This document shows, piece by piece, positions 20,746 to 49,337 of a stretch of 64,000 nucleotides of DNA (within the stretch, counting starts at the first letter, position 1; the number at the start of each line of letters is the position of its first letter). A program made the position numbers and the translations under genes. Origin of the DNA: Eledone cirrhosa (lineage: Eukaryota); contig OZ024744.1 in assembly GCA_964016885.1 (NCBI GenBank), positions 9,486,001 to 9,550,000 of the forward strand, given 5' to 3'. The notes under the pieces are model-generated. The model saw only the letters and a list, made by a program, of their open reading frames with translations, was not told where the DNA came from and searched no databases.

Positions 20746-20756
20746 GTATGAGAATA

Positions 20757-21756
20757 TTACTGTGAAAATACAATAGTTTATATAGAGTAATGTAAATGTT
20801 ATGTCAGGTAAAGCCTTTACTGTTAAAATACAATAGTATATATAGAGTAATGTAAATATTATGTGAGATATTATGTGAGGTAAAACCTTTACTGTGAAAA
20901 TACAATAGTATATATAGAGTAATGTAAATATTATGTGAGATATTATGTGAGGTAAAGCCTTTACTGTGAAAATACAATAGTATATATAGAGTAATGTAAA
21001 TGTTATGTGAGATATTATGTGATGTAAAGCCTTTACTGTGACAATACAATAGTATATATAGAGTAATGTAAATGTTAGGTGAGATATTATGTGAGATAAA
21101 GCCTTTACTGTGACAATACAATAGTATATATAGAGTAATGTAAATGTTATGTGAGATATTATGTGAGGTAAAGCCTTTACTGTGATAATACAATAGTATA
21201 TATAGAGTAATGTAAATGTTATGTGAGGTATTATGTCAGATAAAGCCTTTACTGTGATAATACAATAGTATATATAGAGTACTAAATGTTATGTGAGGTA
21301 AAGCCTTTACTGTGAAAATACAATAGTATATATAGAGTAATGTAAATGTTAGGTGAGATATTAAGTGAGGTAAAGCCTTTACCGTGAAAATACAATAGTA
21401 TATATAGAGTAATGTAAATATTATGTGATGTAAAACCTTTACTGTGAAAATACAATAGTATATATAGAGTAATGTAAATGGTATGAGATATTATGTGAGG
21501 TAAAGCCTTTGCCGTGAAAATACAATAGTATATATAGAGTAATGTAAATGTTATGTGAGATATTATGTGATGTAAAACCTTTACTGTGACAATACAATAG
21601 TATATATAGAGTAATGTAAATGTTATGTGAGATATTATGTGATGTAAAACCTTTACTGTGACAATACAATAGTATATATAGAGTAATGTAAATGTTATGT
21701 GAGGTATTATGTGATGTAAAGCCTTTACTGTGAAAATACAATAGTATATATAGAGT
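20757..21756 (-). repeat. 72-bp minisatellite array B1
   Basis: Reverse complement of the array A unit. Confidence 0.97.
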
Positions 21757-24700
21757 GGTTTCTTTATTTGCCACTAGGGCACAAAAGGTAGGGACAGATA
21801 CAAGGGGGGAAGTTTACATATAATTAACGAGTACAAAAATATAACAATGAAATAACAACAACAAACGAAGTCCTCAATAGGGAGGGGGCATTAACATGGG
21901 TCGCACACACCCCGGAAAAAATGTGCAACTCTTCTCCTCAGGAGCACAAAGAGTAGGTGCTTCCCTCGTCTCCTCTTTTTCCTCTTCTTTCACCTACAGG
22001 CTGATATAGAGAGAAGACCCATTCACTCTGGCCATTCTCCCTACTTTCACCCACCTTTCATAAAACTTGCTGGGGTAGAGCACCTCTCTCTCCATTCTGA
22101 TCCTTCTTTTAAAATGGTATTTGAAAAAGGGGACCAGTTGTTGGCCGGTGAGAAAGTTGTCTGACCTCAGCCCTTTCAGCCTCGTCCACCATACAACTTC
22201 TTTAGCCATGGCTATCACACAGAGAAAAACCGCCTCTCCTTCGTTTTTGAAAGGGGGAGGCGGTTTGATCGTTACAATGGACTCGGTGGTCAACCGGATT
22301 GGTCCCACCCTCGACAGGTCAGCAATGCCTGGGCAATGTACGAATGCGTGCGCAACGGTTTCGTCATCATGCACGCATCTCGGACAGATCTTATTCAAAG
22401 GATCTCTACCCAGGCTCCCATGCCTGTGGAGCTTGTCTCGAACGGGTAGAGCCCCTCGGTAGCACTGCTAAGCCAGGGACTTTTGGAAGTTGTCCATCGG
22501 TCCAGGGCCAAACGTCCTACCGAACAGACTGGCCAGTTCATCTTCCTCCATGCCTAGAGCTTCTCCGAGAGCATCGTCGCACCTGCTGCGTACCAACCCT
22601 CTATAGAATGTCGAGGTGGAGTCTCCACTGATTGCCGGGTCCGCTTTCCAGAGGGCCGTGAGCGCCTGGGCACATTCAATGTGCCAGTCGCCCACTTTTC
22701 TCGGTCTTTGCTTGACCCAGGATTGCAGCTCGGTGAGCGAGACGAGTCTGGGAAAGGCTCGCCTCACAAACGGGGCCCACACCGGTTGACCGGTGAGGAA
22801 TACCTGGAGGTGCCGTAGCCTTAATGCGTGTTTACGCATCTGTAGCCACGGCATCCCCAGCCCTCCTTTCGAAGGGTGTTGACAGCAGATGGATCTCCTC
22901 ACCATAGGGTTCCGCTTGTTCCAAAGAAATTGGGACAGCGCGCACTCCATTTTGGCGAGTCTTTTCACTGGGCAAGGCATGACGGTCAAGCGGTAGTAGA
23001 TGACGGATGCTATATAAGTATTCGCCACCTCCGCTCGACCTTTCAGGGATAGTTTGCACTGTGCTCACTTCTGGGTGAGTGCAAACATCCTGGCCGTTAC
23101 CTCGTTCCAGTTTTTCTCCACCTGGAGGTCTGGTCCAAACCAGACCCCAAGCAGCTTCACCGGGCCCTCCGTCCAGCGTCCGACGACGTCGTTGGAGGGC
23201 ATCGGTTTGCCTCCATGTTCCGAGTTGCAAACCGATGGACTTGTCCCGGTTCAGCTTGGCTCCTGTAAACCTTTCATATTCCTCCAGTAAGGTGCCGATC
23301 TCACCGATTTGCGAAGTTTTCGACACCATTACTGTCACGTCATTGGCGTAGGCCGATGCCGCTTTCTGCAATCCCGGTTCCAAAGGGATGCCCTGCAACC
23401 GCTCCAACTTCCGCAGTAGTGGCTCAAGAGCCAGCACATACAGTAGGGGGGAGAGAGGGCATCCCTGTCGGATGGATCGCATGATTTGGAACGGCTCCGA
23501 GAGGTGGCCGTTCACCTTGACCCTTGAGCAGACGTTGCTGCTGTGCATCGCAGCAATCCAACCCCTGAAAACGGGTCCGAAGCCTGCCGCCGCGAGCACG
23601 GCATCCAGGTAACGATGGTCAACCCTATCGAAAGCTTTAGATTGATCCAAGTTGATCAGGACCCCACCAAAGCCGGGTTCATTCCCTACCCTCTCTATGA
23701 TGTATCGCATAAGGTGGAGATTGTCGTGAATGGACCTGGATGGGATTGTGCATGTCTGCGCTTCTCCCACCAGGTTTCCGACGACAAGCGCCAACCTCTT
23801 CGCTAACACCTTGGCCAAAATCTTTAACTCTGTATTTAGCAGAGTTATGGGCCTGAAGTTACTTATGTCATCCCCCTTGTTCTCATCCTTCCTCACCAGC
23901 GTAACTACGCCCTTGGTCACAGAACTGGGAATTCTCCCGTTCTGCTGCCAGTTGCAGTAGACCGCTTCGAGGATATCGGAGAACAAGTCCGGCATCTCTA
24001 CATATAGCTCGTATGGTAGACCATCGAGACCCGGGGATTTGCGTTTGCCGCATTGGCTCAGCGCCGCCCCTATCTCAGCAGCTGAAATCGTCCTTTCAGA
24101 GGACTTCGCCTCCGCGTCCGAGAGGCGCGGCAGACCGTCGAGGTATGGATTGAAATCCAGTCTCACCCGGCGGGCCACCCCTCTCGAACAGTCGTGCAAA
24201 GTGCCGCTGAAAGGCCGCACACATCTGCCCAGGTTCAAGGATCACACGCCCATCCTGGTCCTTCAAAGACCGAATCGTGGACTTGTTCCCACTTTTTGCC
24301 TCTGTCACTCGGGCCCAGCTCACAGCTTTGGCTCCCTCATTACCCAGAGCACGTATTTTACTCCTGACAACGCAGCCTTCATGCTTCACCTCAAAGAACT
24401 GGTCTAAGGCCATTCTTGATGCCAGCACGCCGGCTACATTGCCACTCCTAATCGCCTCTTCTACTCTATCTACTAATTCCCTTTCCGTCTTGTTCCTATC
24501 CCTTGCTAATTTCTGACTAAAACCTATCGACTCTATTCTAATTGCTCTCTTAAGAGAGCTCCACCACCTGTTGTTGACAATTGCCCCTGTCAAACTCTGC
24601 TTAACTAACGTGCTAATCCGTTTACTGTAAGCTTTGCTTCTCGGTAAGGACAAGTTCAGCTTCCAGTAACCGGGGTATGGGTTCTATCAAGGTTGGCTAT

Positions 24701-27352
24701 GCAGGTCACTAACTTGTGATCCGAATAGTCAACCATGAACATTTTTGGACAGCTAAATGTGTCCCTATCCTTCTCTCTAACTAGGACCCTATCTAGGTAC
24801 GACCTAGATGTTCCGCTGCGATTGGTCCACGTCCATAGTGGTACAGTCGGAAAATCTAGTCGATATCTATCGGCCAGGTCAAATCGGCCGATTAACCTTT
24901 TGAGGCTTTTACACACCCCTCTATTGGCACATGCCCCAACATAGTCCCAACGTGCATCCAGGATACCATTCCAGTCCCCCACTAAAAGCAAGGAGCGGGA
25001 CGTTCCCAGAAAAGTTTCCAGACGTTGGAAGTATTCCGGCCGCGCTGCCCAAAAAGGGGCGTACACAGCTATTAGTCTAAGGGCTCCACTTTCACTACTG
25101 CCGACGTCTAAAACCACCAGTCGACCCTCCGGGTCCAGGTGCACCTTCTGTATGGCGAGGCCCAGGTGTTTTCGCAGCAGAACGACAACTCCACCCCCAC
25201 CCCCCGGTTGACAGAGTGATGCAAAGATCTCAAAGTCGTCGAAGAGGGGCGCCAGTTGGTGCTCGCTGCTGATCCTGGACTCGCAAATAGCCATTACATC
25301 CATTCTATGCGACCTGAGATCGTTTAAAAGTTTGCCTTGTTTCCAAGACAGTCCCAGGCCGCGTACATTCAGACACCCAACTCTTATATCAGCCATGTTG
25401 GTTAAAAGAGGAAGGACCTACCTGTTCGGCTCCTGAGGAGCAGGTTGCACAATATCCATGGGCGTATTGGAGGGGTTGTTTGGTTGGGTGTTATTCTGTG
25501 GTGGAGTGGGGGTGTTTGGTGAGGTGTGGGTGGGGAAACGTTTCAAGAGGACGCGGTTATAGGGTCGAGTACATGTTTTCCCCACGTCCTCAGGAAAGTT
25601 CTCTCTTAGTTTTGCATAGGTGTCCATTGGGATTCTTATCATTTTTAAATGCGGTTTGTTGGCCGCGCTTGCAAAGAATTGCCCTTCAGTTTCCACCGAA
25701 GGGTCTTTGTGTATTGTTTTTACTAGTTCTTTGTTATTTGTGTTAATGTATGTATACTGTTTTATTTGTGTTGTGTTTGTTTGTTGTTCTTGTGTGTGCT
25801 TACGTTTTGTTGTATGTGTTGTGTTTTGGGGTGGGGCGGATTTTGTTTGTTCTGTTTGTTTTGTTTTTGTTGGTGGTTGTGTGTTTGTTTCGTTTATGTT
25901 CGAGTGGTGCTTTCTTTTTTTCCTTTTTACAGGTTGGAAGGGTTCCCCCTCTTCGTCACTAGGTGCCGTTTCAGCTGGGTCCTCGTCCGTGCTGTCGGGT
26001 AGTGGTGTATTTTGGGGTTTTGTTGTATTTGTGTGTGTTTTGGGAGTTGTTTTGGGTGGGGCCGTGTCTTGTGTTATTTTTCCGTGTTGTTTTTGTTGTT
26101 GTTGTGGTGGTGGTGGTGGTGGTGGTGGTGGCGGTGTGTGGGGTGTAGGCAAAAGAGCCTTTTTTTTTGTCAATTGAGGACAAGCAGCCCTTAGATGACC
26201 CCTGCTTGAACAGTAGTAACATATGGGCCTCCTACCCTCGGCTGAAATGTATATAAATGTTTCTCCATCGAGGGACACCCTCTGTGGTATTCTAGCTATT
26301 CGTTCTGGTCTCATTTGGACCAGAACCTCCACGCTCAAACCGCCGAAAACGTCTGTGGTGACTTCTCCTACTGAGAGGATTCCGTCCTCGTCTTCTAAAA
26401 ATCCTGTTAGTACCCAGGAAATGCATGCATTTGGCCGGATTCCGGAGACCCTTATCTTCTGCGTTCTTTTCCCTAAATATGTGGGGAAAAATGTGTGTAG
26501 CTTGGAAACAATTGGCGCCACAGAGTATTTCCTGGCCATCAATTGATCCTTCATTAGGACCGTTATATTCCCATAGAGTGGCCCTTTTTGTATGAACGAT
26601 ATATCACTCCACACATTTTTTAGGACCAACCAATCTCTTTTTGGGATAATTGAGCTGGTTTCCTTGTTATGTTGGAAATTGTTCTGAAGGATATCGTTCT
26701 TAGCGTCATGTCTCTTTTGATTTCTTGTGGGGAGGTGATTGTGAAGTCTCCTCCTTCTTTGAAAGTTACATACTGTTTTGCTTCCTTCATCTTTTCTCTC
26801 AGAGTTGTAATGTCCAGTTGCTTGCAGGTCTGTGTTTTCCGGACCGCCTGTGCAAAGGAGGCACCAGTAGTGGGTTCGCTTTGTTTGGTGTTTTCGTTAT
26901 TTTTTCCTTGGTTGGTGTTGTGACTATTGCTGTTATTGTCGTTGTTGTTTTTGTCTGCGTTTATGTGACTTTCTGGGTTTTCACCCATTTTTACAAATTT
27001 TTCTTTTAATTCCGTGTTCCATGTTTCTTTTGCAGAAGTGAGGAGGGAAGACTTAGAGCCTTGTGCTTCTAGCTTCTCTGTATCACCTTTCTAAGGGGGC
27101 GTGGCTTTCACGTTAGGATGAGATGTGAAAATTCCGTCCATTTCTATTAGTTTGCCGTAATAAATTTTTAACTGGAAAATTCACCCCAAAAAGGGGCGAA
27201 AATAAATAAACTCAAAGTTTGACGACCAAGACAAGGGGTTAACGTATATTACAGTATAAAAAAATAAATCAAAACTCACTTTTTGAGTAAGTAAATCCGA
27301 CTCGGTAGCCGAGCTTGTTCACACACGTCAACACACGTCTCTCGTATACGAG
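21757..27352 (-). mobile_element. Apparently full-length, frameshifted Tx1/L1-clade LINE
   Basis: ORF1 (~26988-25418) with CCHC knuckle CYYCSSRGHLRAAC; ORF2 (25396-21994) with APE (GCLNVRGL, GDWN, SDH), RT (RQGCPLSP, AYANDV) and C-terminal CPRC..H...C; ends AATAAAGAAACC. Confidence 0.95.
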
Positions 27353-29172
27353 ATGTTATGTGAGATATTATGTGAGGTAAAGCCTTTACTGTGGAAATAC
27401 AATAGTATATATAGAGTAATGTAAATGTTATGTGAGATATTATGTGAGGTAAAGCCTTTACTGTGAAAATACAATAGTATATATAGAGTAATGTAAATGT
27501 TATGTGAGATATTATGTGAGGTAAAGCCTTTACTGTGACAATACAATAGTATATATAGAGTAATGTAAATGTTATGTGAGGTATTATGTGAGGGAAAGCC
27601 TTTACTGTGGAAATACAATAGTATATATAGAGTAATGTAAATGTTATGTGAGGTATTATGTGAGGTAAAGCCTTTACTGTGAAAATACAATAGTAAATAT
27701 AGAGTAATGTAAATGTTATGTGAGATATTATATGAGGTAAAGCCTTTACTGTGAAAATACAATAGTTTATATAGAGTAATGTAAATGTTATGTGAGGTAA
27801 AGCCTTTACTGTGGAAATACAATAGTATATATAGTGTAATGTAAATGTTATGTGAGATATTATGTGAGGTAAAGCCTTTACTGTGAAAATACAATAGTAT
27901 ATATAGAGTAATGTAAATGTTATGTGAGGTAAAGCCTTTACTGTGGAAATACAATAGTATATATAGAGTAATGTAAATGTTATGTGAGGTAAAGCCTTTA
28001 CTGTGGAAATACAATAGTATATATAGAGTAATGTAAATGTTATGTGAGATATTATGTGAGGTAAAGCCTTTACTGTGAAAATACAATAGTATATATAGAG
28101 TAATGTAAATGTTATGTGAGATATTATGTGAGGTAAAGCCTTTACTGTGAAAATACAATAGTATATATAGAGTAATGTAAATGTTATGTGAGGTAAATCC
28201 TTTACTGTGGAAATACAATAGTATATATAGAGTAATGTAAATGTTATGTGAGATATTATGTGAGGTAAATCCTTTACTGTGGAAATACAATAGTATATGT
28301 AGAGTAATGTAAATGTTATGTGAGATATTATGTGAGGTAAATCCTTTACTGTGGAAATACAATAGTATATATAGAGTAATGTAAATGTTATGTGAGATAT
28401 GTGAGGTAAATCCTTTACTGTGGAAATACAATTGTATATATAGAGTAATGTAAATGTTATGTGAGATATTATGTGAGGTAAAGCCTTTACCGTGGAAATA
28501 CAATAGTATATATAGAGTAATGTAAATGTTATGTGAGGTATTATGTGAGGTAAAGCCTTTACTGTGGAAATACAATAGTATATATAGAGTAATGTAAATG
28601 TTATGTGAGGTAAAGCCTTTACTGTGAAAATACAATAGTATATATAGAGTAATGTAAATGTTATGTGAGATATTATGTGAGGTAAAGCCTTTACTGTGGA
28701 AATACAATAGTATATATAGAGTAATGTAAATTTTATGTGAGATATTATGTGAGGTAAATCCTTTACTGTGGAAATACAATAGTATATATAGAGTAATGGA
28801 AATGTTATGTGAGATATTATGTGAGGTAAATCCTTTACTGTGGAAATACAATAGTATATATAGAGTAATGTAAATGTTATGTGAGGTATTATGTGAGGTA
28901 AAGCCTTTACTGTGGAAATACAATAGTATATATAGAGTAAAGTAAATGTTATGTGAGATATTATGTGAGGTAAAGCCTTTACTGTGACAATACAATAGTA
29001 TATATAGAGTAATGTAAATGTTATGTGAGGTATTATGTGAGGTAAAGCCTTTACTGTGGATATACAATAGTATATATAGAATAATGTAAATGTTATGTGA
29101 GGTATTATGTGAGGTAAAGCCTTTACTGTGGAAATACAATAGTATATATAGAGTAAAGTAAAAGCTAAAGTG
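27353..29172 (-). repeat. 72-bp minisatellite array B2 ending in a piggyBac-like terminus
   Basis: About 25 units with 60-bp variants; ends GCTAAAGTG|TTAA (TTAA at 29173-29176). Confidence 0.95.
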
Positions 29173-29197
29173 TTAAATTAAATTGATATTATTACAG

Positions 29198-29493
29198 ATG
29201 CGACTTGTAGCAGCCGAGATGGTGTTGATAGAAAATCTGACTATTTAGACACGGTTGTGAAAAAGGAACCTGCTACATCAGAATCTGTTGATGATGGCAA
29301 CAATGTTAGTGATACAAATCATTGCAAGTTGCATTCAGACTCGGTCGATGTGAAGGTCGCTGTTGGATGTGCGACAACAACAAGCCTTGTTGATCTGCTG
29401 CAGATGGATCTCGCTGATGCACTGCAACAAAACAAACAGCTACATCAGTTGGTGACTCAATTACACCAGCAGCATCACGAGAACAGCCTAAAG
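29198..29493 (+). CDS. BRE1: BRE1 coding exon 5
   Basis: Open in the required phase (1 to 0); ...ALQQNKQLHQLVTQLHQQHHENSLK; TTACAG acceptor, GTTTGT donor. Confidence 0.85.
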
Positions 29494-29532
29494 GTTTGTA
29501 TTTACTTTAATGTGTGTGTATTATCATCTAGT

Positions 29533-30230
29533 ATCTAGAATAAGGACGGGTTGGGAGAAGTTTATGGAGCTGCTTCCTCTGTTGACAAAGAAGGGTTTCT
29601 CCCTACGAACGGTTATATGATGCTTGTGTGAGATGCGCGATGATGCATGGTCGTGAAACATGGGCAGGAACTGAGGAGGATATGCGACGACTGGAGAGAA
29701 ATGAGGCAAGCATGCTCCGTTGGATGTGCAGTGTCAATGTGCGTGAACGACCAAGCATAGACGAGTTGAGAGAGAAACTGTATAAGAGGAATAAGTTGTA
29801 GTGTGTGAGTGAAGACTGCGATGGTATGGACATGTGATGTGCATGGAGGATGACCGCTGGGTAAAGAAGTGTCAAGAAATCCCAGTAGAAGGAAGACCAT
29901 GAAAGACATGGGCGGAGGTGGTGAGAGTGACACTGTATATAAGAGGGATAAACTGTAGTGTGCAGGAGAGAAGACTGAGATGGTATGGACATGTGATGTA
30001 CATGGAGGATGACCGCTGGGTAAAGAAGTGCCAAGAAATCCCAGTAGAAGGAAGATGCAGTAGAGGAAGACCACGAAAAACATGGGCGGACGTGGTGAGA
30101 GCTGACCTCAGATCGCTGAACCTCACAGAGGAGATGACGAGGGACCGTGACGAATGAAGACATGCTGTGCTGAATAGGACCCGTCCAACCCTTTCAAGCA
30201 TGGAAAAATGGACGTAAAATAATGATGAGA
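29533..30230 (+). mobile_element. RTE LINE 3' fragment with an internal duplication
   Basis: The RRLRWYGH segment occurs twice; 3' tail present. Confidence 0.88.
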
Positions 30231-31093
30231 ATGATGGGTGCTTTTTGCCGTGTCTTTTACACGTCCACTTTACAGTGGGTATTTCAGGGCTGGTTCTCTA
30301 TGGTTGGATGCCCTTCCTAACGCCAACCACATTGTGTGCTGGGTGCTTTTTGCTGTGACACCTATACAATCACTTTACGGTGTGGACTGTGGACCTTTGT
30401 TGTGTCACCAACACAACACACTGGGGACTAGGGAGGGTGGAGTAGCTTGGGAAAGAAAATGTGGTCAATTCCATTTTCGTCCACTGTAAAGTGGTCGTGT
30501 CGGTGACACGACAAAAAGCACCCGGTCCACACTTTAAAGTGTTTGTGGAGATAAAAAGGCTCCCAGTCCACACTGTAAATGTGGTTGGTATTAGGAAGGG
30601 CATCCTGTCATAGAAAACGTACCAGAGACAGTTCTGTACGAGCGAGACATGGTCTCACAATCAATCTCGCCTCAAGTAGGACAAAACCGTCCAACTCATG
30701 CTAGCGTGGAAGATAGACGTTAAATGCATCTTTCTTCAAAATTATGGACCCCATCATTCACCATTCCATGCCAACTTTCTCTATCAAGAGCTTCTATCTA
30801 CCCGTCAGCCATCATCAAACCAGTTTTTTTCTATGAGTCCTTTACACAATCCTTGAATCGGAGCCTTGGCTTGTGAGGTGGTCTCTTACACTTACAAAGC
30901 TCGCCATACAAGAGTTGTTTTGGGATTCAATCATCCTCCGTTCTGCAGAGGTGTCCAGTCCATCCCAAACGCCGTTGGTGGATGATACTCTCAATGCTCC
31001 GACACTCACTTCTCTCAAGGACCTCGACATCACTCACATGCATCTGTCACTTGTTGACATGTTACAGAGTTTTCTCCTCTTACTTCTCTTTAG

Positions 31094-31312
31094 GTATCTG
31101 AATTACAAGACAAAGTCACTGCTGCAGAGACTGGCAATGCTGAATTACGAAACAAAGTTGATGACTTGGAGTATGATTATGAAAAGGCTGATCAACGTGC
31201 CAGAAAATTAGACCGACGACTAGCTGACAGTCTGCAGAAGTTGCGGGGTTATGAAGAGGACCCAGTTGTACATGAAGGGGGCCGTACCATCTCTGGTGTT
31301 TCAAAGAATAAG
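31094..31312 (+). CDS. BRE1: BRE1 coding exon 6
   Basis: VSELQDKVTAAETGNAELRNKVDDLEYDYEKADQRARKLDRRLADSLQKL; CTTTAG acceptor, GTAAGG donor; 219 nt. Confidence 0.93.
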
Positions 31313-31461
31313 GTAAGGCTGAATGTTACCTGTTCCGTCGTTCACTCTTTGACTATCTCATTGCTCAGTATGTATACTCCTCCTTCAACCCATATATGTT
31401 AATTCTCGCTTTCTCTCTCTCTAAGTTGTTGACTGTGACATTGAACATCTGACCAACACAC

Positions 31462-32510
31462 GTCTAGAATAAGGACGGGTTGGAAGAAGTTTAGGGAGCT
31501 GCTTCCTCTGCTGACAAAGAAGGGTTTCTCCCTACGAACGAAAGGCCGGTTATATGATGCTTGTGTGAGATGCGCGATGCTGCAAGGTAGTGAGACATAG
31601 GCAGCAATTGAGGAGGATATGCGACGGCTGGAGAGAAATGAGGCAAGCATGCTCCGTTGGATGTGCAATGTCAATGTGCTTGAATGACCGAGAGAAGAGA
31701 CTGAGGTGGTATGGACATGTGATGAGTTGAGAGAGAAACTGTGTCTGAGAGGGATAGAATATAGTGTGCGAGAGAGGAGACTGAGGTGGTATGGACATGT
31801 GATGAGTTGAGAGAGAAACTGTGTCTGAGAGGGATAGAATATAGTGTGCGAGAGAGGAGACTGAGGTGGTATGGACATGTGATGTGTTGAGAGAGAAACT
31901 GTGTCTGAGAGGGATAGAATATAGTGTGCGAGAGAGGAGACTGAGGTGGTATGGACATGTGATGAGTTGAGAGAGAAACTGTGTCTGAGAGGGATAGAAT
32001 ATAGTGTGCGAGAGAGGAGACTGAGGTGGTATGGACATGTGATGTGTTGAGAGAGAAACTGTGTCTGAGAGGGATAGAATGTAGTGTGCGAGAGAGGAGA
32101 CAGGTGGTATGGACATGTGATGTGTTGAGAGAGAAACTGTCTGAGAGGGATAGAATGTAGTGTGCGAGAGAGGAGACTGAGGTGGTATGGACATGTGATG
32201 AGTTGAGAGAGAAACTGTCTGAGAGGGATAGAATATAGTGTGCGAGAGAGGAGACTGAAGTGGTATGGACATGTGATGTGCATGAAGGATGACCGATGGG
32301 TGAAGAAGTGCCAGGAAATGCCAGTTGAAGGAAGACGTGGTAGAGGTAGACCACGAAAAACATGGGCGGAGGTGATGAGAACTGACCTCAGATCACTGAA
32401 GCTCACGGTGGAGATGACGAGTGGGGAGATGCTGTGCTGAATAAGACCTGTCCCACCCTTGCAAGCAGGGAAAAGCGGACGTAAAATGATGATGATGATG
32501 ATGATGATGT
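31462..32510 (+). mobile_element. RTE LINE 3' fragment containing an 80-bp tandem array (~7 units, 31690-32280)
   Basis: The unit derives from the ELREKL...RRLRWYGHVM coding segment. Confidence 0.9.
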
Positions 32511-32632
32511 TGCCATGGGTTAACACACACAGACAGACATCCTCAGTTTTGCTACAGAGTAGGTAGACCCAGAACAACCTGGGATGATCTAATAAATTCC
32601 GACCTCGCACACTTACACCTCTCTAAGACAAT

Positions 32633-33058
32633 GTCACTGGACCGAGACCTTTGGCGCTACGCAGTAATACAGAAGACCCGCCTTGCCTATATACAAAGCG
32701 AAACCTACAGTCAGTAGGCACCTCCTAATTAAAAACACAACCCCGCCCCATCCACACCACCCCTTTCGATGTAAAGTTATGTTGGTACCACGACATCCAG
32801 CCCGAAACAAATGAGGTCGTGTAGGTGTCACGACAAAAAAACACACAGTCCACGCTGTAATGTGGCCGTGTAGGCAACACGGTAAAAACCTCCCAGTCCA
32901 CACTGTAAACGTGGTTGGTGTTAGGAAGGGCATCCAGCCGTAGAAAACCCGCCAGACAGTCCTATACGAGTCAGACAACCAATCTTGCCTCACGTGGGGC
33001 AATTCTCGTCTAAACCCATGCTAGCGTGGAAGATGGACGTTAAATGATGATGATGGTG
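32633..33058 (+). mobile_element. RTE 3' end / 3' UTR
   Basis: Reverse complement of 5800-6260; (GAT)n tail. Confidence 0.85.
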
Positions 33059-33126
33059 ATTTTTAAAAGTTATCTTTTCTAAACTATGAAAGCAATTCCA
33101 GTGCTAACATGTTTCTTTCCTGACAG

Positions 33127-35103: not shown

Positions 35104-35274
35104 GTCAGGAACATGTCTCATTCACATGTTACAATCTTGGCATGATTTCTATGGCTGAATAACTGTATCAAACCTCTTTAAAGAGTGTACTGGGTGAGGA
35201 CACTTACCCTAACAGCCAGGGTGACCATGGCATTTTGTGGGCTTTCTCCATGAGTGACATTCGGAAAATACCCA

Positions 35275-37113: not shown

Positions 37114-37558
37114 ATACTCTATATATACTATTGTATTTTCACAGTAAAAGTGTTACCTCACATAATATCTCACATAACATTTACATTACTCTATATATAC
37201 TGTTGTATTTTCACGGTAAAAGCTTTACCTCACATATTATCTCACATAACATTTACATTACTCTATATATACTATTTTATTTTCACGGTAAAGGCTTTAC
37301 CTCACATAATATCTCACATAACATTTACATTACTCTATATATACTATTGTATTTTCACAGTAAGGTCTTTACCTCACATCATATCCCACATAACATTTAC
37401 ATTACTCTATATATACTATTGTATTTTCACAGTAAAGGCTTTACCTCACATAATATCTCACATAACATTTACATTACTCTATATATACTATAGTATTGTC
37501 ACAGTAAAGGCTTTACCTCACATAATATCTCACATAACATTTACATTATTCTATATAT

Positions 37559-38921
37559 GCTCTGTTCTTAGCCCTCTTCTGTTCATCATAGTCCTGCAGG
37601 CAATAACAGAGGAGTTTAAGACCGGATGCCCATGGGAACTCCTGTATGCTGATGACTTCGCACTCATAGCTGAATCTATGGTAGAACTAGAGAATAAATT
37701 CCAAACTTGGAAGCAGGGACTAGAAAGAAAGGGTCTCAAAGTCAACATGACAAAGACTAAGGTCCTTGTAAGTAGACGAGAAAACAGAACCCAGATCCCC
37801 CCAGGGAAATGGCCTTGCTCAGTATGTAGGAAAGGTGTAGGTAGGAACTCCATTCTCTGCCCCAAATGCAAACAATGAGTACACAAGAGATGTAGCGGAA
37901 TCTCAGGAAGCTTAATTAAGAATGTAGGATTCACATGCAGCAGCTGTGCTGATGCAGCAAGCAGCAAACAGCCACAGGAAACAAGTACCACCAATCTCTG
38001 GGAGGGCCCTGTAGAAACAGTAGACAGCTTCTGCTACCTAGGTGACCGAATTAGCAACGGAGGTGGGTGTTCAGAAAGTACAATAACTAGGGTAAGAACG
38101 GGATGGAAGAAGTTTAGGTAACTACTACCACTGCTAGCTGCAAAAGGCTTCTCCCTCAGAATGAAAGACAGACTGTATGATGCGTGTATCCGAACAGCGA
38201 TGTTGCATGGTAGTGAGACCTGGGCGCTGAAGGTGGAAGACTTACGTAGATTAGAGAGAAACGAAGCCTGCATGCTCCGATGGATGTGTAACAGTAATAT
38301 ACGCGAACGACAAAGCATAAGTGAATTGAGAGAGAGACTGAGCATAAGAGGAATCAAATGCTGTGTGCAGGAGAGGCGGTTGCGCTGGTATGGACATGTG
38401 ATGCGTATGAAGGATGGCAGCTGCATAAAAAGGTGCAGAGCACTAGAAGTTGATGGAAACCGCGGAGTGGGGAGACCCAAGATGACCTGGGATGAGGTGA
38501 TAAAAGCCGACCTTACCCAACTACACCTCTCAAAGACAATGACACACGACCGTGACTTCTGGCGTCACGCAGTAATACAGAGTACCCGACCTCCCATGGG
38601 TACAAGCTGAAGCATATAGACAATATGCCCCCACACCCCCCACCTCAAGGTGGTCGTGGAGGTGCCACGGCAAAAAAGCACCCAGCTCACACTGTAAAGT
38701 GGACGTGTAGGCGCCACGAAAAAGCACCCAGCACTCACTGTAAATGAGGTTGGTGTTAGGAAGGGCATCCAGCTGTAGAAATCAAGCCAGATCAGTTCCT
38801 GTATGAGCAAGGCATGGTCAGCCGACCAGACACTGCCCACAACAGGACAGCCCGTCTAACCCATGCTAGCGTGGAAGAACGGACGTAAAACGGTGATGAT
38901 GATGATGATGATGATGATGAT
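37559..38921 (+). mobile_element. RTE 3' fragment nested in the minisatellite
   Basis: SVLSPLLF...LLYADD...RRLRWYGH; (GAT)n tail. Confidence 0.93.
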
Positions 38922-39820
38922 ACTATTGTATTTTCACAGTAAGGTCATTACCTAACATATCTCACATAACATTTACATTATTCTATATATACTATTGTAT
39001 TTTAACAGTAAAGGCTTTACCTCACATAATACCTCACATAACATTTACATTCTCTATATATACTATTGTATTTTAACAGTAAAGGCTTTACCTCACATAA
39101 TATCTCACATAACATTTACATTCTCTATATATACTATTGTATTTTAACAGTAAAGGCTTTACCTCACATAATACCTCACATAACATTTACATTACTCTAT
39201 ATATACTATTGTATTGTCACAGTAAAGGCTTTACCTCACATAATATCTCACATAACATTTACATTACTCTTTATATACTATTGTATTTTCACAGTAAAGG
39301 CTTTACCTCACATAATATCTCACATAACATTTACATTACTCTATATATACTATTGTATTTTAACAGTAAAGGCTTTACCTCACATAATATCTCACATAAC
39401 ATTTACATTACTCTATATATACTATTGTATTGTCACAGTAAAGGCTTTACCTCACATAATATCTCACATAACATTTACATTCTCTATATATACTATTGTA
39501 TTTTAACAGTAAAGGCTTTACCTCACATAATATCTCACATAACATTTACATTACTCTATATATACTATTGTATTTTAACAGTAAAGGCTTTACCTCACAT
39601 AGTACCTCACATAACATTTACATTACTCTATATATACTATTGTATTTTCACGGTAAAGACTTTACCTCACATAATATCTCACATAACATTTACATTACTC
39701 TATATATACTATTGTATTTTCACAGTAAAGACTTTACCTCACATAATATCTCACATAACATTTACATTACTCTATATATACTATTGTATTTTCACGGTAA
39801 AGGCTTTACCTCACATAATA
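38922..39820 (+). repeat. 72-bp minisatellite array
   Basis: Same unit as array A. Confidence 0.95.
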
Positions 39821-40377
39821 ATCCTGTGTATTTTAAAATCCCAGTATATCACTTATTACTGTTATAAGCTTTATTTAAAACCTTCTCCTCGCTTAATATT
39901 AATCTTGGCTGAAATTTTCCAGGATTCATAAAAGTGGCCTCCCTCGTCCCTCTAAATCTCTAACCCCCCCCCCCCCCCCTCTTTATCACATACGTGCCTG
40001 TTGGTCTCTCTCTCTCTCTCTCTCGATCACTCCCTACTCGCACCAAATATAAATAAACCTGTTACGAGGTACGAATTTCAGAATTTGTCAACTCTTATTA
40101 ATGGTCAGTCCACTTCTATGAAATGTAATGTAAAAATACCATTTTCTTCTTGTCTCGCCACCCTTCGGTTCATTCATCCATATATCTGTATCATCGCCCA
40201 GAATCCAATCCTGCTTTCTCAATGCTATTCTATAATTCTGTCTGGTTGTTCTGAATAATCCTGTGTATTTTAAAATCCCAGTATATCGCTTATTACTGTT
40301 ATATGCTTTATTTAAAACCTTCTCCTCGCTAACTACCCCATACCCCTTCCGTCCGCCCCACTCTCCACCATTATTTT

Positions 40378-42916
40378 TTGGAGCAATCACAAGTCAGCGG
40401 CCTATGCTATCACTTCTCCTGGTTGCTTTTCGATATGATGGATGGACTAAGGAATTCTGGAGAGTCTGAAGAATCTGGACACTCAGTGACAATGCCAAAG
40501 ATAACGACAAATTCACCTCATGCTGCTGGACGAAAAGGCAGGGACTCCTCCTCTTTGTTTCGGCCGCGAATGGCCAACATAACCCCAACCCCATCCCCCT
40601 CACCCCTCCCTGCGCCCCACCCACCAAACGCAATCCAAAACTTCAGAGTTGGTACCATGAATGTAGGCACCTTAAAAGGTCGCTCTAATGAGGTTGTAGA
40701 AATGCTTGAACGTAAGGAGGTTGATGTTTGTTGTATTCAAGAGACCAGGTGGAGGGGCGGGTCTGCTAGATTCATTGTAGGTAAAAAACGATGCTATAAG
40801 CTTTTCTGGGTGGGAAATGACAATGGGCTGGGTGGGGTAGGAATCATGGTAGCAGAAAAATGGGTGGATAAGATAATAGACGTAAATAGAGTGAACGACA
40901 GAATAATTAAAATAAGACTTGTCCTCAATAGAACTACTGTGACAATAATATCTGCATATGCACCACAATCCGGACTGCCTGGCACTATAAAAGACAGATT
41001 CTATGAGACACTGATGCTCACTACCTCCCAAATAACCGACAGTGACTATATAATTATTGCTGGCGACCTAAATGGTCACGTTGGACAACATTGTGATGGC
41101 TATGACGGAATCCATGGAGGCTATGGGTTTGGTACTAGAAATGAGGAAGGCTCCAGAATCCTGGAATTCTGTGACGCAAATAACCTAACTATCTGTAACA
41201 CTAACTTCAAAAAACGAGACAATCACTTGATCGCCTATAGATCAGGGGAACACACAAGCCAGGTAGATTATATCCTTACCAGAAGACGTGACAGAGTGTC
41301 TGTTGTAAACACTAAATCCCTCCCCCATGAAGAATGCACCTCTCAACATAGACTCATAATTAGCGACCTCATAGACGTACTCGACAACAGAAGACGACTA
41401 TCCTCAGGAGAAAAATATGGAAGCTAAAGGACCCCACAGCCAGTAATAAATTTAAAAGCATACTACTTGATGCTTTCGACAGTAAGGAAGAGCAATTAGA
41501 GTTGTACAATATAGAGGAACAGTGGGAATTCCTGAAAGCAAACCTGCTGAAGGCGACAGATGAAGTCTGTGGCTGGAGCAGACCTATAGGCAGGAGGAGA
41601 GTAATGTGGTGGTGGAACAGTAAGGTGGAGGAGTCAATTAAGGACAAAAAGCTGGCTTGGAAAGTATGGCGGGATGGGGGAAGTAGAGAAGACTATCAAG
41701 TGGCCAGGAGGGAAGCTAGGAGACAAGTGTACTTCGCAAGAAGGGAAGCAGAGGAAAGAAAGTTCAAGCATGTTCTACAACGCGATGACCAAAAACGTGA
41801 GGTGTTCAGGATTGCTAGGCAATGTGTCAAGGAAAACCGTGATATTGTCGGGGAGAAGTGTGTCCTTAATGATGATGGTGTACTTGTCATCACTGACGCT
41901 GATAAGAAGGTAGCTTGGAAGTGTCACTACGAAAGGCTACTAAATGAGGAGAATAAATGGGAGAAAGACAGTCTCCCCCACATCGATCCAATAGAGGGAC
42001 CAGCAGTGTTAGTCGAAGGTAGTATAATAAGTAAGGCAATCAAAGATACGAAGACGGGTAAGGCGGTTGGGCCTTCGGAAATAGTTGCTGAGATGCTGAA
42101 AGCTTCTGGAACGGTGGTACACACTATGGTCACCCGGATAGTAAACCAAGTTATACAGAATGGGGTTGTTCCGAAGGACTGGCGTAGCAGATCATCATTA
42201 GCTGCTACAAGGGTAAAGGAGATGCCCTAGATAGGGGTAACTATAGAGGCATTAAATTAATCGACCAGGTCATGAAGGTCACAGAAAAAGTAATAGCGCA
42301 ACTAATCAGAAAGTGGTGAATTGATCTAGATGAAATGCAGTTCGGGTTTGTGTCAGGTAAAAGTACAACAGACGCTCTTTTCATTGTACGACAACTACAG
42401 GAGAAGTACCTAACTAAAAGTAAACCCCTATACTTAGCTTTTGTCGACTTGGAGAAAGCCTTTGACAGAGTCCCCCGTTCCATTATCTGGTGGGCTCTTA
42501 GAAAACTAGGTGTTGATGAATGGCTTGTGAGAGCTATACAAGCCATGTATAAAGAAACAGTCAGTAAGGTTAGAATTAACAACGAATATAGTGAAGAGTT
42601 TAGTGTAAAAGTTGGTGTTCATCAGGGCTCTGTTCTTAGCCCCCTACTATTTATTATCGCCCTCCAGGCTATAACAGTGGAGTTCAAGACCGGCTGCCTA
42701 TGGGAACTCCTATACGCAGATGATCTAACGCTCATAGCTGAATCAATGGCTGAACTAGAGAAGAAATTCGAAACATGGAAGCATGGCCTAGAATCAAAAG
42801 GCCTTAAAATTAACCTGCCTAAGACTAAAGTTCTAGTTTGTAGGAAGGAAAATAGGGCACAGGTGCCCTCAGGGAAATGGCCATGCTCAGTGTGTAGGAA
42901 ATGAGTAGGCAGAAAC
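40378..42916 (+). mobile_element. 5' two-thirds of an RTE LINE (APE endonuclease plus RT); 3' end missing
   Basis: VGTMNVGTL...CCIQETRW, AGDLNGHVG, SQHRL; RT QGSVLSP, YADD; a few frameshifts and stops. Confidence 0.95.
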
Positions 42917-42920
42917 GGCA

Positions 42921-45900
42921 GACGGAATCCTCTCAGTAGGAGAAGTCACCACAGACGTTTTCGGCGGTTTGAGCGTGGAGGTTCTGGTGCAAATGAGACC
43001 AGAACGAATAGCGAGAATACCACAGAGGGTGTCGCTCGATGGAGAAACATTTATATACATTTCAGCCGAGGGTAGGAGGCCCATATGTTACTACTGTTCA
43101 AGCAGGGGTCATCTAAGGGCTGCCTGTGCTCAATTGACAAAAAAAAAAGGCTCTTTTGCCTACACCCCACACACCACCACCACCACCACCACAACAACAA
43201 CAACAAAAACAACACGGAAAAATAACACAAGACACGGTTCCACCCAAAACAACTCCAAAAGCACACAAACACAACAAAACCCCAAAATACACCACTACCC
43301 GACAGCACGGACGAGGACCCAGCTGAAACGGCACCTAGTGACGAAGAGGGGGAACCCTTCCAACCTGTAAAAAGAAAAAAAAGAAAACACCGCACGAACA
43401 TAAACGAAACAAACACACAACCACCAACAAAAACAAAACAAACAGAACAAACAAAATCCACCCCACCCCAAAACATAACACATACAACAAAACGCAAGCA
43501 CACACAAGAACAACAAACGAACACAACACAAATAAAACAGTATACATACATTAACACAAATAACAAAGAACTAGTAAAAACAATACACAAAAACCTTTCG
43601 GTGGAAACTGAAGGGCAATTCTTTGCAAGCGCGGCCAACAAACCGCATTTAAAAATGATAAGAATCCCAATGGACACCTATGCAAAACTAAGAGAGAACT
43701 TTCCTGAGGACGTGGGGAAAACATGTACTCAACCCTATAACCGCGTCCTCTTCAAACGTTTCCCCACCCACACCTCACCAAACACCCCCACCCCACCACA
43801 GAACAACACCCCACCAAACAACCCCTCCAATACGCCGATGGATATTGTGCAACCTGCTCCTCAGGAGCCGAACAGGTAGGTCCTTCCTCTTTTAACCAAC
43901 ATGGCTGATATAAGAGTTGGGTGTCTGAATGTACGTGGCCTGGGACTGTCTTGGAAACAAGGCAAACTTTTAAACAATCTCAGGTCGCATAGAATGGATG
44001 TAATGGCTATTTGCGAGTCCAGGATCAGCAGCAAGTGCCAACTGGCGCCCCTCTTCGACGACTTTGAGATCGTCGCATCTCTCTGTCAACCGGGGGGTGG
44101 GGGTGGAGTTGTCGTTCTGCTGCGAAAACACCTGGGCCTCGCCATACAGAAGGTGCACCTGGACCCGGAGGGTCGACTGGTGGTTTTAGACGTCGGCAGT
44201 AGTGAAAGTGGAGCCCTTAGACTAATTGCTGTGCCCCTTTTTGGGCAGCGCGGCCGGAATACTTCCAACGTCTGGAAACTTTTCTGGGAACGTCCCGCTC
44301 CTTGCTTTTAGTGGGGGACTGGAATGGTATCCTGGATGCACGTTGGGACTATGTAGGGGCATGCGCCAATAGAGGGGGTGTAAAAGCCTCAAAAGGTTAA
44401 TCGGCCGATTTGACCTGGCCGATAGATATCGACTAGATTTTCCGACTGTACCACTATGGACGTGGACCAATCGCAGCGGAACATCCAGGTCTTACCTAGA
44501 TAGGGTACTAGTTAGAGAGAAGGCTAGGGACACATTTAGCTGTCCAAAATTGTTCATGGTTGACTATTCAGATCACAAGTTAGTGACCTGCATAGCCAAC
44601 CCTGATCGAACCCATAGCCAGGGACCCGGTTACTGGAAGCTGAACTTGTCCTTACCGACAAGCAAAGCTTACAGTAAACGGATTAGCACGTTAGTTAAGC
44701 AGAGTTTGACGGGCAATTGTCAACAACAGGTGGTGGAGCTCTCTTAAGAGAGCAATTAGAATAGAATCGATAGGTTTTAGTCAGGAATTAGCAAGGGATA
44801 GGAACAAGACGGAAAGGGAATTAGTAGATAGAGTAGAAGAGGCGATTAGGAGTGGCAATGTAGCCGGCGTGCTGGCATCAAGAATGGCCTTAGACCAGTT
44901 CTTTGAGGTGAAGCATGAAGGCTGCGTTGTCAGGAGTAAAATACGTGCTCTGGGTAATGAGGGAGCCAAAGCTGTTAGTTGGTCCCGAGTGACAGGCAAA
45001 AAGTGGGAACAAGTCCACGATTCGGTCTTTGAAGGACCAGGATGGGCGTGTGATCCTTGAACCTGGGCAGATGTGTGCGGCCTTTCAGCGGCACGTTGCA
45101 CGACTGTTCGGGAGGGGCGGCGCTCCGGGTGAGACTATGGATTTCAATCCATACCTCGACGGTCTGCCGCGCCTCTCGGACGCGGAGGCGAAGTCCTGCG
45201 AAAGGCCGATTTCAGCTGCTGAGATAGGGGCGGCGCTGAGCCAATGCGGCAAACGCAAATCCCCGGGTCTCGATTGTCTACCATACGAGCTATATGTAGA
45301 GATGCCGGACTTGTTCTCCGATATCCTCGAAGCGGTCTACTGCAACTGGCAGCAGAACGGGAGAATTCCCAGTTCTGTGACCAAGGGCGTAGTTACGCTG
45401 GTGAGGAAGGATGAGAACAAGGGGGATGACATAAGTAACTTCAGGCCCATAACTCTGCTAAATACAGAGTTAAAGATTTTGGCCAAGGTGTTAGCGAAGA
45501 GGTTGGCGCTTGTCGTCGGAAACCTGGTGGGAGAAGTGCAGACATGCACAATCCCATCCAGGTCCATTCACGACAATCTCCACCTTATGCGATACATCAT
45601 AGAGAGGGTAGGGAATGAACCCGGCTTTGGTGGGGTCCTGATCAACTTGGATCAATCTAAAGCTTTCGATAGGGTTGACCATCGTTACCTGGATGCCGTG
45701 CTCGCGGCGGCAGGCTTCGGACCCGTTTTCAGGGGTTGGATTGCTGCGATGCACAGCAGCAACGTCGGGTCAAGGTGAACGGCCACCTCTCGGAGCCGTT
45801 CCAAATCATGCGATCCATCCGATAGGGATGCCCTCTCTCCTCCCTTCTGTATGTGCTGGCTCTTGAGCCACTACTGCGGAAGTTGGAGCGGTTGCAGGGC

Positions 45901-47553
45901 ATCTTTGGAACCGGGATTGCAGAAAGCGGCGTCGGCCTACGCCGATGACGTGACAGTAATGGTGTCGAAAACCTCGCAAATCGGTGAGATCGGTACCTTA
46001 CTGGAGGAATATGAAAGGTTTACAGGAGCCAAGCTGAACCGGGACAAGTCCGTCGGTTTGCAACTCGGAACATGGAGAGGCAAACCGATGCCCTCCAATG
46101 ACGTCATCGGACGCTGGACGGAGGGCCCGGTGAAGCTGCTTGGGGTCTGGTTCGGACCAGACCTCCAGGTGGAGAAAAACTGGAACGAGGTACCGCCCAG
46201 GGTGTTTGCACTCACCCAGAAGTGGGCCCAGTGCAAACTATCCCTGAAAGGTCGAGCGGAGGTGGCGAATACTTATATAGCATCCGTCATCTACTACCGC
46301 TTGACCGTCATGCCTTGCCCAGTGAAAAGACTCGCCAAAATGGAGTGCGCGCTGTTCCAATTTCTTTGGAACAAGCGGACCCCTTTGGTGAGGAGATCCA
46401 TCTGCTGTCAACACCCTTCGAAAGGAGGGCTGGGGATGCCGTGGCTACAGATGCGTAAACACGCATTAAGGCTACGGCACCTCCAGGTATTCCTCACCGG
46501 TCAACCGGTGTGGGCCCCGTTTGTGAGGCGAGCCTTTCCCAGACTCGTCTCGCTCACCGAGCTGCAATCCTGGGTCAAGCAAAGACCGAGAAAAGTGGGC
46601 GACTGGCACATTGAATGTGCCCAGGCGCTCACGGCCCTCTGGAAAGCGGACCCGGCAATCAGTGGAGACTCCACCTCGACATTCTATAGAGGGTTGGTAC
46701 GCAGCAGGTGCGACGATGCTCTCGGGGAAGCTCTAGGCATGGAGGAAGATGAACTGGCCAGTCTGTTCGGTAGGACGTTTGGCCCTGGACCGATGGACAA
46801 CTTCCAAAAGTCCCTGGCTTGGCAGTGCTACCGAGGGGCTCTACCCGTTCGAGACAAGCTCCACAGGCATGGGAGCCTGGGTAGAGATCCTTTGAATAAG
46901 ATCTGTCCGAGATGCGTGCATGACGACGAAACCGTTGCGCATGCATTCGTACACTGCCCAGGCATTGCTGACCTGTGGGGCTATGTGGAACGACTACTGT
47001 CGAGGGTGGGACCAATCCGGTTGACCACCGAGTCCATTGTAACGATCAAACCGCCTCCCCCTTTCAAAAACGAAGGAGAGGCGGTTTTTCTCTGTGTGAT
47101 AGCCATGGCTAAAGAAGTTGTATGGTGGACGAGGCTGAAAGGGCTGAGGTCAGACACCTTTCTCTCCGGCCAACAACTGATCGCCTTTTTCAAATAGCAT
47201 TTTAAAAGAAGGATCAGAATGGAGAGAGGTGTTCTACCCCAGCAAGTTTTATGAAAGGTGGGTGAAAGTAGGGAGAATGCCAGAGTGAATGGGTCTTCTC
47301 TCTATATCAGCCTGTAGGTGAAAGAAGAGGAAAAAGAGGAGACGAGGGAAGCACCTACTCTTTGTGCTCCTGAGGAGAAGGGTTACACATTTTTTCGGGG
47401 TGTGTGCGACCCATGTTAATGCTCCCTCCCTATTGAGGACTTCGTTTGTTGTTGTTATTTCATTGTTATATTTTTGTACTCGTTAATTATATGTAAACTT
47501 CCCCCCTTGTATCTGTCCCTACCTTTTGTGCCCTAGTGGCAAATAAAGAAATC
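42921..47553 (+). mobile_element. 5'-truncated Tx1/L1-clade LINE, second copy
   Basis: Near-identical to the reverse complement of 21757-26386; intact YADD; ends AATAAAGAAATC. Confidence 0.95.
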
Positions 47554-49337
47554 ACTTTATATATACTATTGTATTTTCACAGTAATGTCTTTACCTCACA
47601 TAATATCTCACATAACATTTACATTACTCTATATATACTATTGTATTTTCACAGTAAAGGTTTTACCTCACATAATATCTCACATAACATTTACATTACT
47701 CTATATATACTATTGTATTTTCACAGTAAAGGCTTTACCTCACATAATATCTCACATAACATTTACATTACTCTATATATACTATTGTATTTTCACAGTA
47801 AAGGTTTTACCTCACATAATATCTCACATAATATTTACATTACTCTATATATACTATTGTATTTTCACAGTAAAGGCTTTACCTCACATAATATCTCACA
47901 TAACATTTACATTACTCTATATATACTATTGTATTTTCACAGTAAAGGTTTTACCTCACATAATATCTCACATAACATTTACATTACTCTATATATACTA
48001 TTGTATTTTCACAGTAAAGGCTTTACCTCACATAATATCTCACATAACATTTACATTACTCTATATATACTATTGTATTTTCACAGTAAAGGTTTTACCT
48101 CACATATCTCACATAACATTTACATTACTCTATATATACTATTGTATTTTCACAGTAAAGGTTTTACCTCACATAATATCTCGTATAACATTTACATTAC
48201 TCTTTATATACTATTGTATTTTCACAGTAAAGGCTTTACCTCACATAACATATACATTACTCTATATATACTATTGTATTTTCACAGTAAAGGTTTTACC
48301 TCACATATCTCACATAACATTTACATTACTCTATATATACTATTGTATTTTCACAGTAAAGGCTTTACCTCACAATATCTCACATAACATTTACATTACT
48401 CTATATATACTATTGTATTTTCACAGTAAAGGCTTTACCTCACAATATCTCACATAACATTTACATTACTCTATATATACTATTGTATTTTCACAGTAAA
48501 GGCTTTACCTCATATAATATTTACATTACTCTATATATACTATTGTATTGTCACAGTAAAGTCTTTACCTCACATAATATCTCACATAACATTTACATTA
48601 CTCTATATATACTATTGTATTTTCACAGTAAAGGCTTTACCTCACATAATATCTCGCATAACATTTACATTACTCTATATAAACTATTGTATTGTCACAG
48701 TAAAGGCTTTACCTCACATAACATTTACATTACTCTATATATACTATTGTATTTTCACAGTAAAGGCTTTACCTCACATAATATCTCACATAACATTTAC
48801 ATTACTCTATATATACTATTGTATTGTCACAGTAAAGTCTTTACCTCACATAATACCTCACATAACATTTACATTACTCTAAATATACTATTGTATTGTC
48901 ACAGTAAAGTCTTTACCTCACATAATACCTCACATAACATTTACATTACTCTATATATACTATTGTATTTTCACAGTAAAGGCTTTACCTCACATAACAT
49001 TTACATTACTCTATATATACTATCGTATTTTCACAGTAAAGGCTTTACCTCACATAACATTTACATTACTCTATATATACTATTGTATTGTCACAGTAAA
49101 GTCTTTATATCACATAATACCTCACATAACATTTACATTACTCTATATAAACTATTGTATTTTCACAGTTAAGGCTTAACCTCACAGAACATTTACATTA
49201 CTCTATATATACTATTGTATTTTCACAGTTAAGGCTTTACCTCACATAATATCTCACATAACATTTACATTACTCTATATATACTATTGTATTTTCACAG
49301 TTAAGGCTTTACCTCACATAATATCTCACATAATATC
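47554..49337 (+). repeat. 72-bp minisatellite array (~25 units)
   Basis: Same unit as array A. Confidence 0.97.

Follow-up and report, generated by a model that had tools for sequence, protein, structure and literature searches.

The 64,000-nucleotide (nt) window analysed here, positions 9,486,001 to 9,550,000 of contig OZ024744.1 of Eledone cirrhosa, contains two copies of a Tx1-like long interspersed nuclear element (LINE), and both are inserted at the same nucleotide of a tandemly repeated 72-bp unit. We consider it probable that these copies belong to a young family with an apurinic/apyrimidinic endonuclease (APE), that they were likely inserted independently of each other by target-primed reverse transcription, and that the repeat likely arose by amplification of the core of a non-autonomous piggyBac transposon. 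An initial annotation of the window had proposed a possibly new site-specific family targeting a dispersed minisatellite. Independent and site-specific insertion within the window is supported by the lesions, an excess of silent substitutions and private letters of the copies; however, a family of this kind is not new but already in print. The target is indeed a tandem 72-bp repeat, but rather than a free minisatellite it likely represents the amplified core of a non-autonomous piggyBac element; the arrays around copy 2 are bordered by TTAA sites and matching ends.

Insertion site and junctions

Copy 1 is located on the minus strand (21757..27352), is full length (5596 bp) and lacks a poly(A) tail. 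Copy 2 is located on the plus strand (42921..47553), lacks the first 966 nt and aligns to copy 1 with 97.9% identity (4499 matches, 96 mismatches and 16 indels). The 3' ends of both copies consist of AATAAAGAAA and two further letters (CC in one copy, TC in the other), which are followed by the 72-bp unit without any intervening poly(A). The 3' junction of copy 1 (minus strand, 21757/21756) reads ...AATAAAGAAACC followed by ACTCTATATATAC, and that of copy 2 (47553/47554) reads ...AATAAAGAAATC followed by ACTTTATATATAC, so that the unit is entered at the same nucleotide, in the same phase and in the same orientation in two of two copies. The initial annotation had reported these coordinates, the missing poly(A) tail, and the shared nucleotide and relative orientation, all of which were confirmed; its flank letters hold for the junctions, but position 4 of the unit flanking copy 2 carries a C>T exchange and does not read as annotated. 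Within the window, the 72-bp unit forms seven array segments with a total length of 7475 bp and 107 unit anchors, and the chance that two random local insertions both fall in an array at the same phase and strand is p ~1.3e-4 for arrays of this length.

The array continues on either side of copy 1. The downstream part (20770..21756, minus strand, ~14 units) starts at ACTC, and the upstream part (27353..29172, minus strand, ~25 units) stops 7 nt short of the phase with which the downstream half starts. Of 22 listed public runs, four were mapped to 21727-27382, one of which, X6, is shallow (13 records); no RNA run was among those listed, which carries no information on expression. Contigs from public runs that span the empty site of copy 1 contain 7 letters between 21756 and 27353, and AATGTAA is present at 79 of 83 intact sites within the window. 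The missing 7 nt and the 7 letters of the empty-site contigs therefore indicate a target truncation at copy 1, an outcome that has been reported for insertions of elements without long terminal repeats (LTRs) (PMC4494074). The 5' start of copy 1 (27341-27352) is a perfect 12-bp palindrome; since its first half is similar to a rare unit variant, the exact start of the element may be shifted inwards by as much as 8 nt.

On its 5' side, copy 2 is joined to the 5' half of an RTE-like LINE (39817..42916, plus strand) via four extra letters, which copy neighbouring sequence. The endonuclease (EN) and part of the reverse transcriptase (RT) of this LINE are encoded from 40333 onwards, and we take it to be RTE-like because of its anatomy (EN-RT, (TGA)n tail) and not on the basis of an RTE tree. 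The array ahead of the RTE 5' half stops 1-4 nt from the 5' phase of copy 1, modulo the 12-bp internal repeat of the unit, and there is a weak indication that the RTE 5' half and copy 2 represent a single chimeric insertion. The 519-bp stretch ahead of the RTE open reading frame (ORF), 39817-40335, is bordered by 82-bp direct repeats (95% identical) and is possibly a 5' untranslated region (UTR) or a separate small element.

Origin of the 72-bp repeat

The window was searched for TTAA followed by a terminus motif. This search yielded 7 matches versus 1.5 expected, which correspond to both arrays' starts in two cases and otherwise to the termini of two elements of 1.2 kb and to a third fragment. 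A defective, TTAA-flanked 1.2-kb piggyBac with transposase fragments (14455..15682, plus strand; DDE_Tnp_1_7, E 1.2e-10), of which a second copy is found at 33645-34865, served as reference for the termini. The defective elements at 14455-15682, 33645-34865 and 18318-18754 retain the N-terminus of the transposase, and a piece of a common repeat resembling a short interspersed nuclear element (SINE) lies near one end of each.

The element that holds copy 2 extends from 35869 to 49456 and has TTAA on both sides (35869-35872 and 49453-49456). Its piggyBac-like left terminus (35869..35884, plus strand) has 0 mismatches to the motif of the search, and its score was reached in 0-3 of 500 shuffles. 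The left terminus is followed by three arrays within 35873..39820 on the plus strand (35873-36159, 37116-37558 and 38920-39820), which are divided by two RTE-like insertions, and a further array of ~26 units is found downstream of copy 2 (47554..49333, plus strand). The unique right end (49337..49456, plus strand) carries an inverted terminus, and the 120 unique bases after the last array match the other end of the 1.2-kb piggyBacs (0-2 of 2000 shuffles for three piggyBac ends in the window). The right terminus begins with CCTT and the left one with CCAT, which has one mismatch to the terminus motif CC[C/T]T (PMC2872659); the termini are imperfect inverted repeats. Furthermore, positions 37-72 of the unit match the sequence just inside that same end of the 1.2-kb piggyBacs (1-25 of 2000 shuffles). 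Judged by these similarities, the region 35869-49456 likely represents a single non-autonomous piggyBac; its core would have been amplified in tandem, and three RTE-like LINEs as well as copy 2 would have inserted into it afterwards. The array upstream of copy 1 starts at TTAA with a degenerate piggyBac-like terminus (29161..29176, minus strand, 2 mismatches to the motif of the search), for which no other end was found in the window. An uninterrupted array of ~17 units (13065..14313, plus strand) has a degenerate left terminus that does not score above shuffles, and its right end was not found in the window either.

Targeting of U2, 5S or tRNA genes was ruled out: an Rfam search over 12900-50000 gave no small-RNA target and only a marginal tRNA match at 35699. 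This match (35699-35755, 29.4 bits) is located within a repeat that has four copies in the window and is likely a tRNA-derived SINE.

Coding capacity and classification

ORF1 of copy 1 (25418..27090, minus strand) is split over two frames, and its translation contains a CX2CX4HX4C knuckle; the corresponding zf-CCHC match (E 0.008) is below the cut-off, and the nearest Atlas matches of ORF1 are CCHC proteins (0.92). A cluster of ZCCHC3 RNA-binding domains is also found among the Atlas neighbours of 25421-26896 (0.90); Pfam does not detect these domains, and no confirmation was obtained that ZCCHC3 is connected to Tx1 ORF1. ORF2 of copy 1 (21994..25396, minus strand) encodes an APE endonuclease, an RT and a C-terminal zinc motif, carries 4 deletions and 2 stops, and has YAND in place of YADD, while ORF2 of copy 2 has 8 deletions and 2 stops. 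The N-terminal APE endonuclease was detected as Exo_endo_phos (E 1.7e-13), its best matches in the PDB are variants of L1-EN, and the catalytic motifs are retained in both copies. The remainder of ORF2 matches RVT_1 (E 1.1e-26) and zf-RVT (E 7.8e-7) and no further Pfam family, thus neither an RNase H nor a restriction-like endonuclease. Folding predicts pairing only between neighbouring 72-bp units, and the 5' end of the element has no clear structure (z -1.7).

Among solved structures, the RT matches L1 ORF2p with 121 bits versus at most 88 bits for R2. It shares 37-38% identity with two proteins that are named 'transposon TX1' by their sources, one of which scores 227 bits versus 121 bits for human L1, the two scores being from different searches. 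The nearest relative is an unnamed protein with 74% identity in the RT, followed by a group near 50%. A quick RT tree with 46 rows, namely 44 out of 238 retrieved proteins together with one RT copy and one RTE, placed copy 1 with P0001 (99) and with 18 unnamed proteins (99); its backbone is open and it contains neither an L1 nor a Repbase reference. From these comparisons, the element is likely a member of the Tx1 clade.

Evidence for two separate insertions

When the letter of either copy is permitted at every difference, ORF2 is stop-free and encodes 1145 amino acids, its relative P0002 having 1148. Each of the 12 indels and 4 stops thus occurs in one copy only, and 0 of 16 ORF2 lesions are shared, which bears out the initial annotation in its claim that the copies carry different lesions. 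Among the substitutions in ORF2, 28 of 65 are silent versus 18.5 expected (p=0.007, with CpG changes, other transitions and transversions treated as separate classes), and pN/pS between the copies is 0.49. The silent excess indicates that some of the divergence arose under selection, i.e. in active parents and not after a duplication. Differences to the reads of run X1 were evaluated for 40 of 1124 rows, of which the 22 within the range of copy 2 were used. Among these rows, X1 is nearly devoid of the letter of copy 1 at four positions, and copy 2 differs from copy 1 at all four of them, having the letter of the reads at three and a gap at one.

The letters just before the junction also differ between the copies, and the sequences beyond the arrays are unrelated. 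The downstream repeat variants had been described as different, and indeed none of 14 colinear variant units is identical. A shared order of variants in the flanks, a test that had been set beforehand, was not found (shuffle p=0.22); however, this test has little power because the two halves of the array around copy 1 also differ strongly, with variant T24C in 16 of 25 units versus 0 of 14. A later duplication of one insertion is unlikely.

Alternative explanations

Several points weigh against a site-specific family that entered an amplified piggyBac core twice. Direct reading covers only two junctions, both within the window, and no array directly adjoins copy 2 on its 5' side. Taken alone, nt 1-40 of the unit match the piggyBac end no better than shuffled sequences (909-1321 of 2000). 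For two of the three array starts, a right end is missing and the match to the terminus is weak (17-135 of 500 shuffles); under the piggyBac interpretation, the missing right ends are explicable only by later deletion. At 7 of 11 positions at which at least 80% of the summed X1 depth differs, both copies agree (among the rows listed); these seven shared letters suggest marks of a subfamily, since the shared letter is still present at a depth of at least 2780, a reading that relies on summed depths. Gene conversion following a duplication could mimic the silent excess, and the assignment to the Tx1 clade is no firmer than likely because the RT tree contains no L1 reference. Lastly, RTE-like insertions lie 4-10 nt from the Tx1 site, and three other RTE- or SINE-type tails within the window (8887, 16984 and 18793) adjoin (AT)n; the TA-rich stretch therefore draws other LINEs, and a looser preference is possible.

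Such a loose preference would mean that the element favours flexible AT- or TA-rich sites in general and that a gene rich in units was simply hit twice. Two 5'-truncated RTE-like LINEs are in line with this idea, one of which is inserted into the array (36160..37115, minus strand) on the strand opposite to Tx1, 4-5 nt away from its site and apparently with a duplication of 5-6 bp, and the other into the TATATATA tract (37559..38920, plus strand) at 9-10 nt from the Tx1 site, their 3' ends being at 36160 and 38920. In addition, the T/A step at the insertion site is similar to the L1 consensus TTTT/AA (PMC1950540). However, both Tx1 ends are found at one nucleotide and on one strand, 4 nt outside the TA tract, whereas the two RTEs vary in position and strand; the pure (AT)n tracts of the window contain no Tx1-like copy, and a contig of run X5 hints at an identical 5' junction. 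This explanation is thus rather improbable.

It is also conceivable that a single insertion was later duplicated, either by an inverted local duplication or as cargo of a transposing piggyBac, and then truncated. The two copies lie within 26 kb in a region with local duplications (partial copies of a Bre1 exon at 33091 and 35014), and fast turnover of the arrays deprives the variant order of power against a duplication. Against this stand the complete lack of shared ORF2 lesions, ~2.7 of which would be expected by simple arithmetic had the duplication taken place after the first quarter of the element's age, the silent excess, the letters private to copy 1 among the rows listed, the two differing letters before the junction and the unrelated sequences past the arrays, and we assign a low probability to this scenario. 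That the repeat is part of the element's RNA, so that the junction was inherited by 3' transduction without any choice of target, would fit the missing poly(A) tail and the identical phase in both copies, but is scarcely credible given that copy 1 splits an array with a 7-bp deletion, that the first downstream units are unlike between the copies and that the array after copy 2 leads into a piggyBac right end whose left end is upstream of copy 2.

Proposed mechanism

For independent insertion by target-primed reverse transcription, the following steps are conceivable. On the G-rich strand, the endonuclease would cut at a T/A step (5'-GAGT/AATG-3') that lies 18 nt inward from the left terminus of the piggyBac, or at the equal phase of any unit in an array. 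From the 3' end set free in this way, reverse transcription would then be primed on an RNA ending with AATAAAGAAA and two variable letters, and a second nick ~7 nt upstream would lead to a deletion rather than a duplication of the target. Copy 2 and the RTE 5' half were likely joined either by a template jump as copy 2 inserted or by a subsequent deletion. In its second half, the unit matches the sequence just inside the other piggyBac end, and the unit was thus likely born at the joint of an internally deleted piggyBac and expanded by slippage, which would have supplied the landing site ~100-fold in the host gene Bre1 alone.

Abundance of the family and its target in public reads

In run X1, contigs covering the UTRs and ORF1 have a depth of 2166-2696 versus 7.5-23 for three divergent contigs, and the dominant read contig shares the 5' 30-nt region of copy 1. 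In run X20, a restriction site-associated DNA (RAD) run, 36,965 reads start at one internal site versus 87-168 at joints derived from one to three read starts. These values suggest that the family is multicopy with about a hundred or more copies, a rough figure since read depth is no copy number. A unit variant that is missing from the 83 sites of the window reaches a depth of 633 in X1, and the repeat is therefore probably abundant outside the window. Run X5, which carries another species label, yielded a contig with a depth of 45.5 and 6 substitutions in the 5' UTR, which reaches ~27383, i.e. 30 nt beyond the 5' junction of copy 1, as would be the case if it ran on into the same repeat. Indirectly, this hints that a sister subfamily shares the 5' junction. 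At one RAD locus of X20 (117 reads, one start), the 3' end is joined to a 5'-truncated copy (joint 22489-21759), forming a head-to-tail tandem elsewhere in the species; this joint may reflect either several insertions into one site or a template jump. Neither the 3' end of the element nor the unit or the protein was found in metagenome contigs, viral contigs or prokaryote genomes, as expected for animal DNA.

It is tempting to speculate, although we regard it as doubtful, that an octopod piggyBac relic amplified the stretch with the Tx1 nick site and thereby became a genome-wide, self-renewing sink in several octopus species, in which one nucleotide of the unit would harbour the majority of the young Tx1 copies, a hundred or more in total, along with some RTEs; the APE family would then be tail-less and strictly specific, and each insertion would delete the same 7 bp of target.

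Relation to known site-specific elements

Tx1 of Xenopus inserts into Tx1D, a non-autonomous piggyBac, and other Tx1 families prefer Mariner, Harbinger or LTR elements, microsatellites or satellites, the latter being listed in the legend of Fig. 3 (PMC4494074). According to the same source, Kojima proposed in 2015 that a family is target-specific if >20% of its genomic copies are flanked by one kind of sequence; in the window, the 72-bp unit flanks two of two copies. Tx1L of Xenopus laevis resembles the element described here in being an APE-type element with a fixed site inside a non-autonomous piggyBac (PMC4494074), and its endonuclease, Tx1L-EN, nicks its own site almost exclusively (PMC1950540). 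However, the sequence downstream of the Tx1L site is AGTT (PMC1950540) instead of AATG, and the host here is a mollusc. Since the Tx1L/Tx1D arrangement would recur in a distant phylum, tandem repeats derived from piggyBac may be recurrent safe harbours. The different target and the 7-bp deletion at copy 1 speak against identity with Xenopus Tx1L itself. The Tx1D site of Tx1L is located within an internal tandem repeat, and Tx1L produces a target duplication of ~23 bp, whereas 7 bp were deleted at copy 1.

DNA transposons (Mariner-N4_AMi and Harbinger) likewise contain the preferred sites of two Tx1 families, Tx1-Mar and Tx1-9_AMi, and tandem insertions and target truncations have been reported for SINEs that are likely mobilised by families of this type (PMC4494074). 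In contrast to the element of E. cirrhosa, these families are crocodilian, their targets are not described as tandemly amplified in the available part of that source, and their SINEU partners carry poly(A) tails, which both copies here lack (PMC4494074). Tandem arrays that originate from part of a TTAA-type miniature inverted-repeat transposable element are known as Xstir in Xenopus and CMITE in corals; however, no targeting by LINEs is reported for them in the accessible text (PMC2872659, PMC6947457). In the genome of Octopus vulgaris, 13 recently active L1-Tx1 families and 6 piggyBac families were counted, and the accessible text gives no target-site analysis for the former (PMC13282606), the comparison with the present element being one of descriptions and not of library sequences.

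No description of the LINE family or of the 72-bp target was found in the literature searched, Repbase and most subscription journals being outside its coverage, and the family is likely an undescribed one of a known kind, the site-specific Tx1 elements. If confirmed, this would be a site-specific Tx1 family in a cephalopod, a group in which such elements have been counted but not target-mapped in the literature searched. Its endonuclease may also extend the set of natural APE enzymes by one whose substrate, a 72-bp unit, is defined, which could be useful for studying how specificity changes.

Genomic setting

The host gene Bre1 encodes an E3 ligase and spans 11041..49604 on the plus strand, with exons near 11041, 12730, 14337, 20415, 29197, 31085 and 49473 (tblastn). 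The exon at 20421-20744 shares 92% identity with Bre1 of Octopus sinensis and 57% with cuttlefish Bre1, which marks the window as animal DNA and its host as an octopod. All 72-bp arrays are intronic and spread over three Bre1 introns, two of which have been enlarged by >20 kb through the nested insertions. The intron at 20746-29198 consists almost entirely of the array and copy 1, and its two ends add only ~24 and ~22 bases of other sequence; an acceptor site likewise follows within ~40 bp of the point where the array at 13065-14313 stops, and also of the piggyBac end at 49456. The exon at 49473 has two partial duplicates upstream in the same intron (33091-33260 and 35002-35087), which are 92-96% identical and have each kept the acceptor site, the one at 33091-33260 with an internal 50-bp duplication.

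Further tandem arrays are present in the window: a 30-bp repeat with nearly no G on the plus strand occupies 12 kb (51768-64000), and shorter arrays are found at 49855-51170 (108-bp unit), 2380-3000 (degenerate 71-bp unit) and 31689-32278 (80-bp unit derived from LINE RT sequence). Upstream of Bre1, five long, near-perfect fold-back palindromes of 150-660 bp are located at 234-716, 1548-2206, 4454-4860, 4952-5281 and 5370-5516, several of which adjoin (AT)n.

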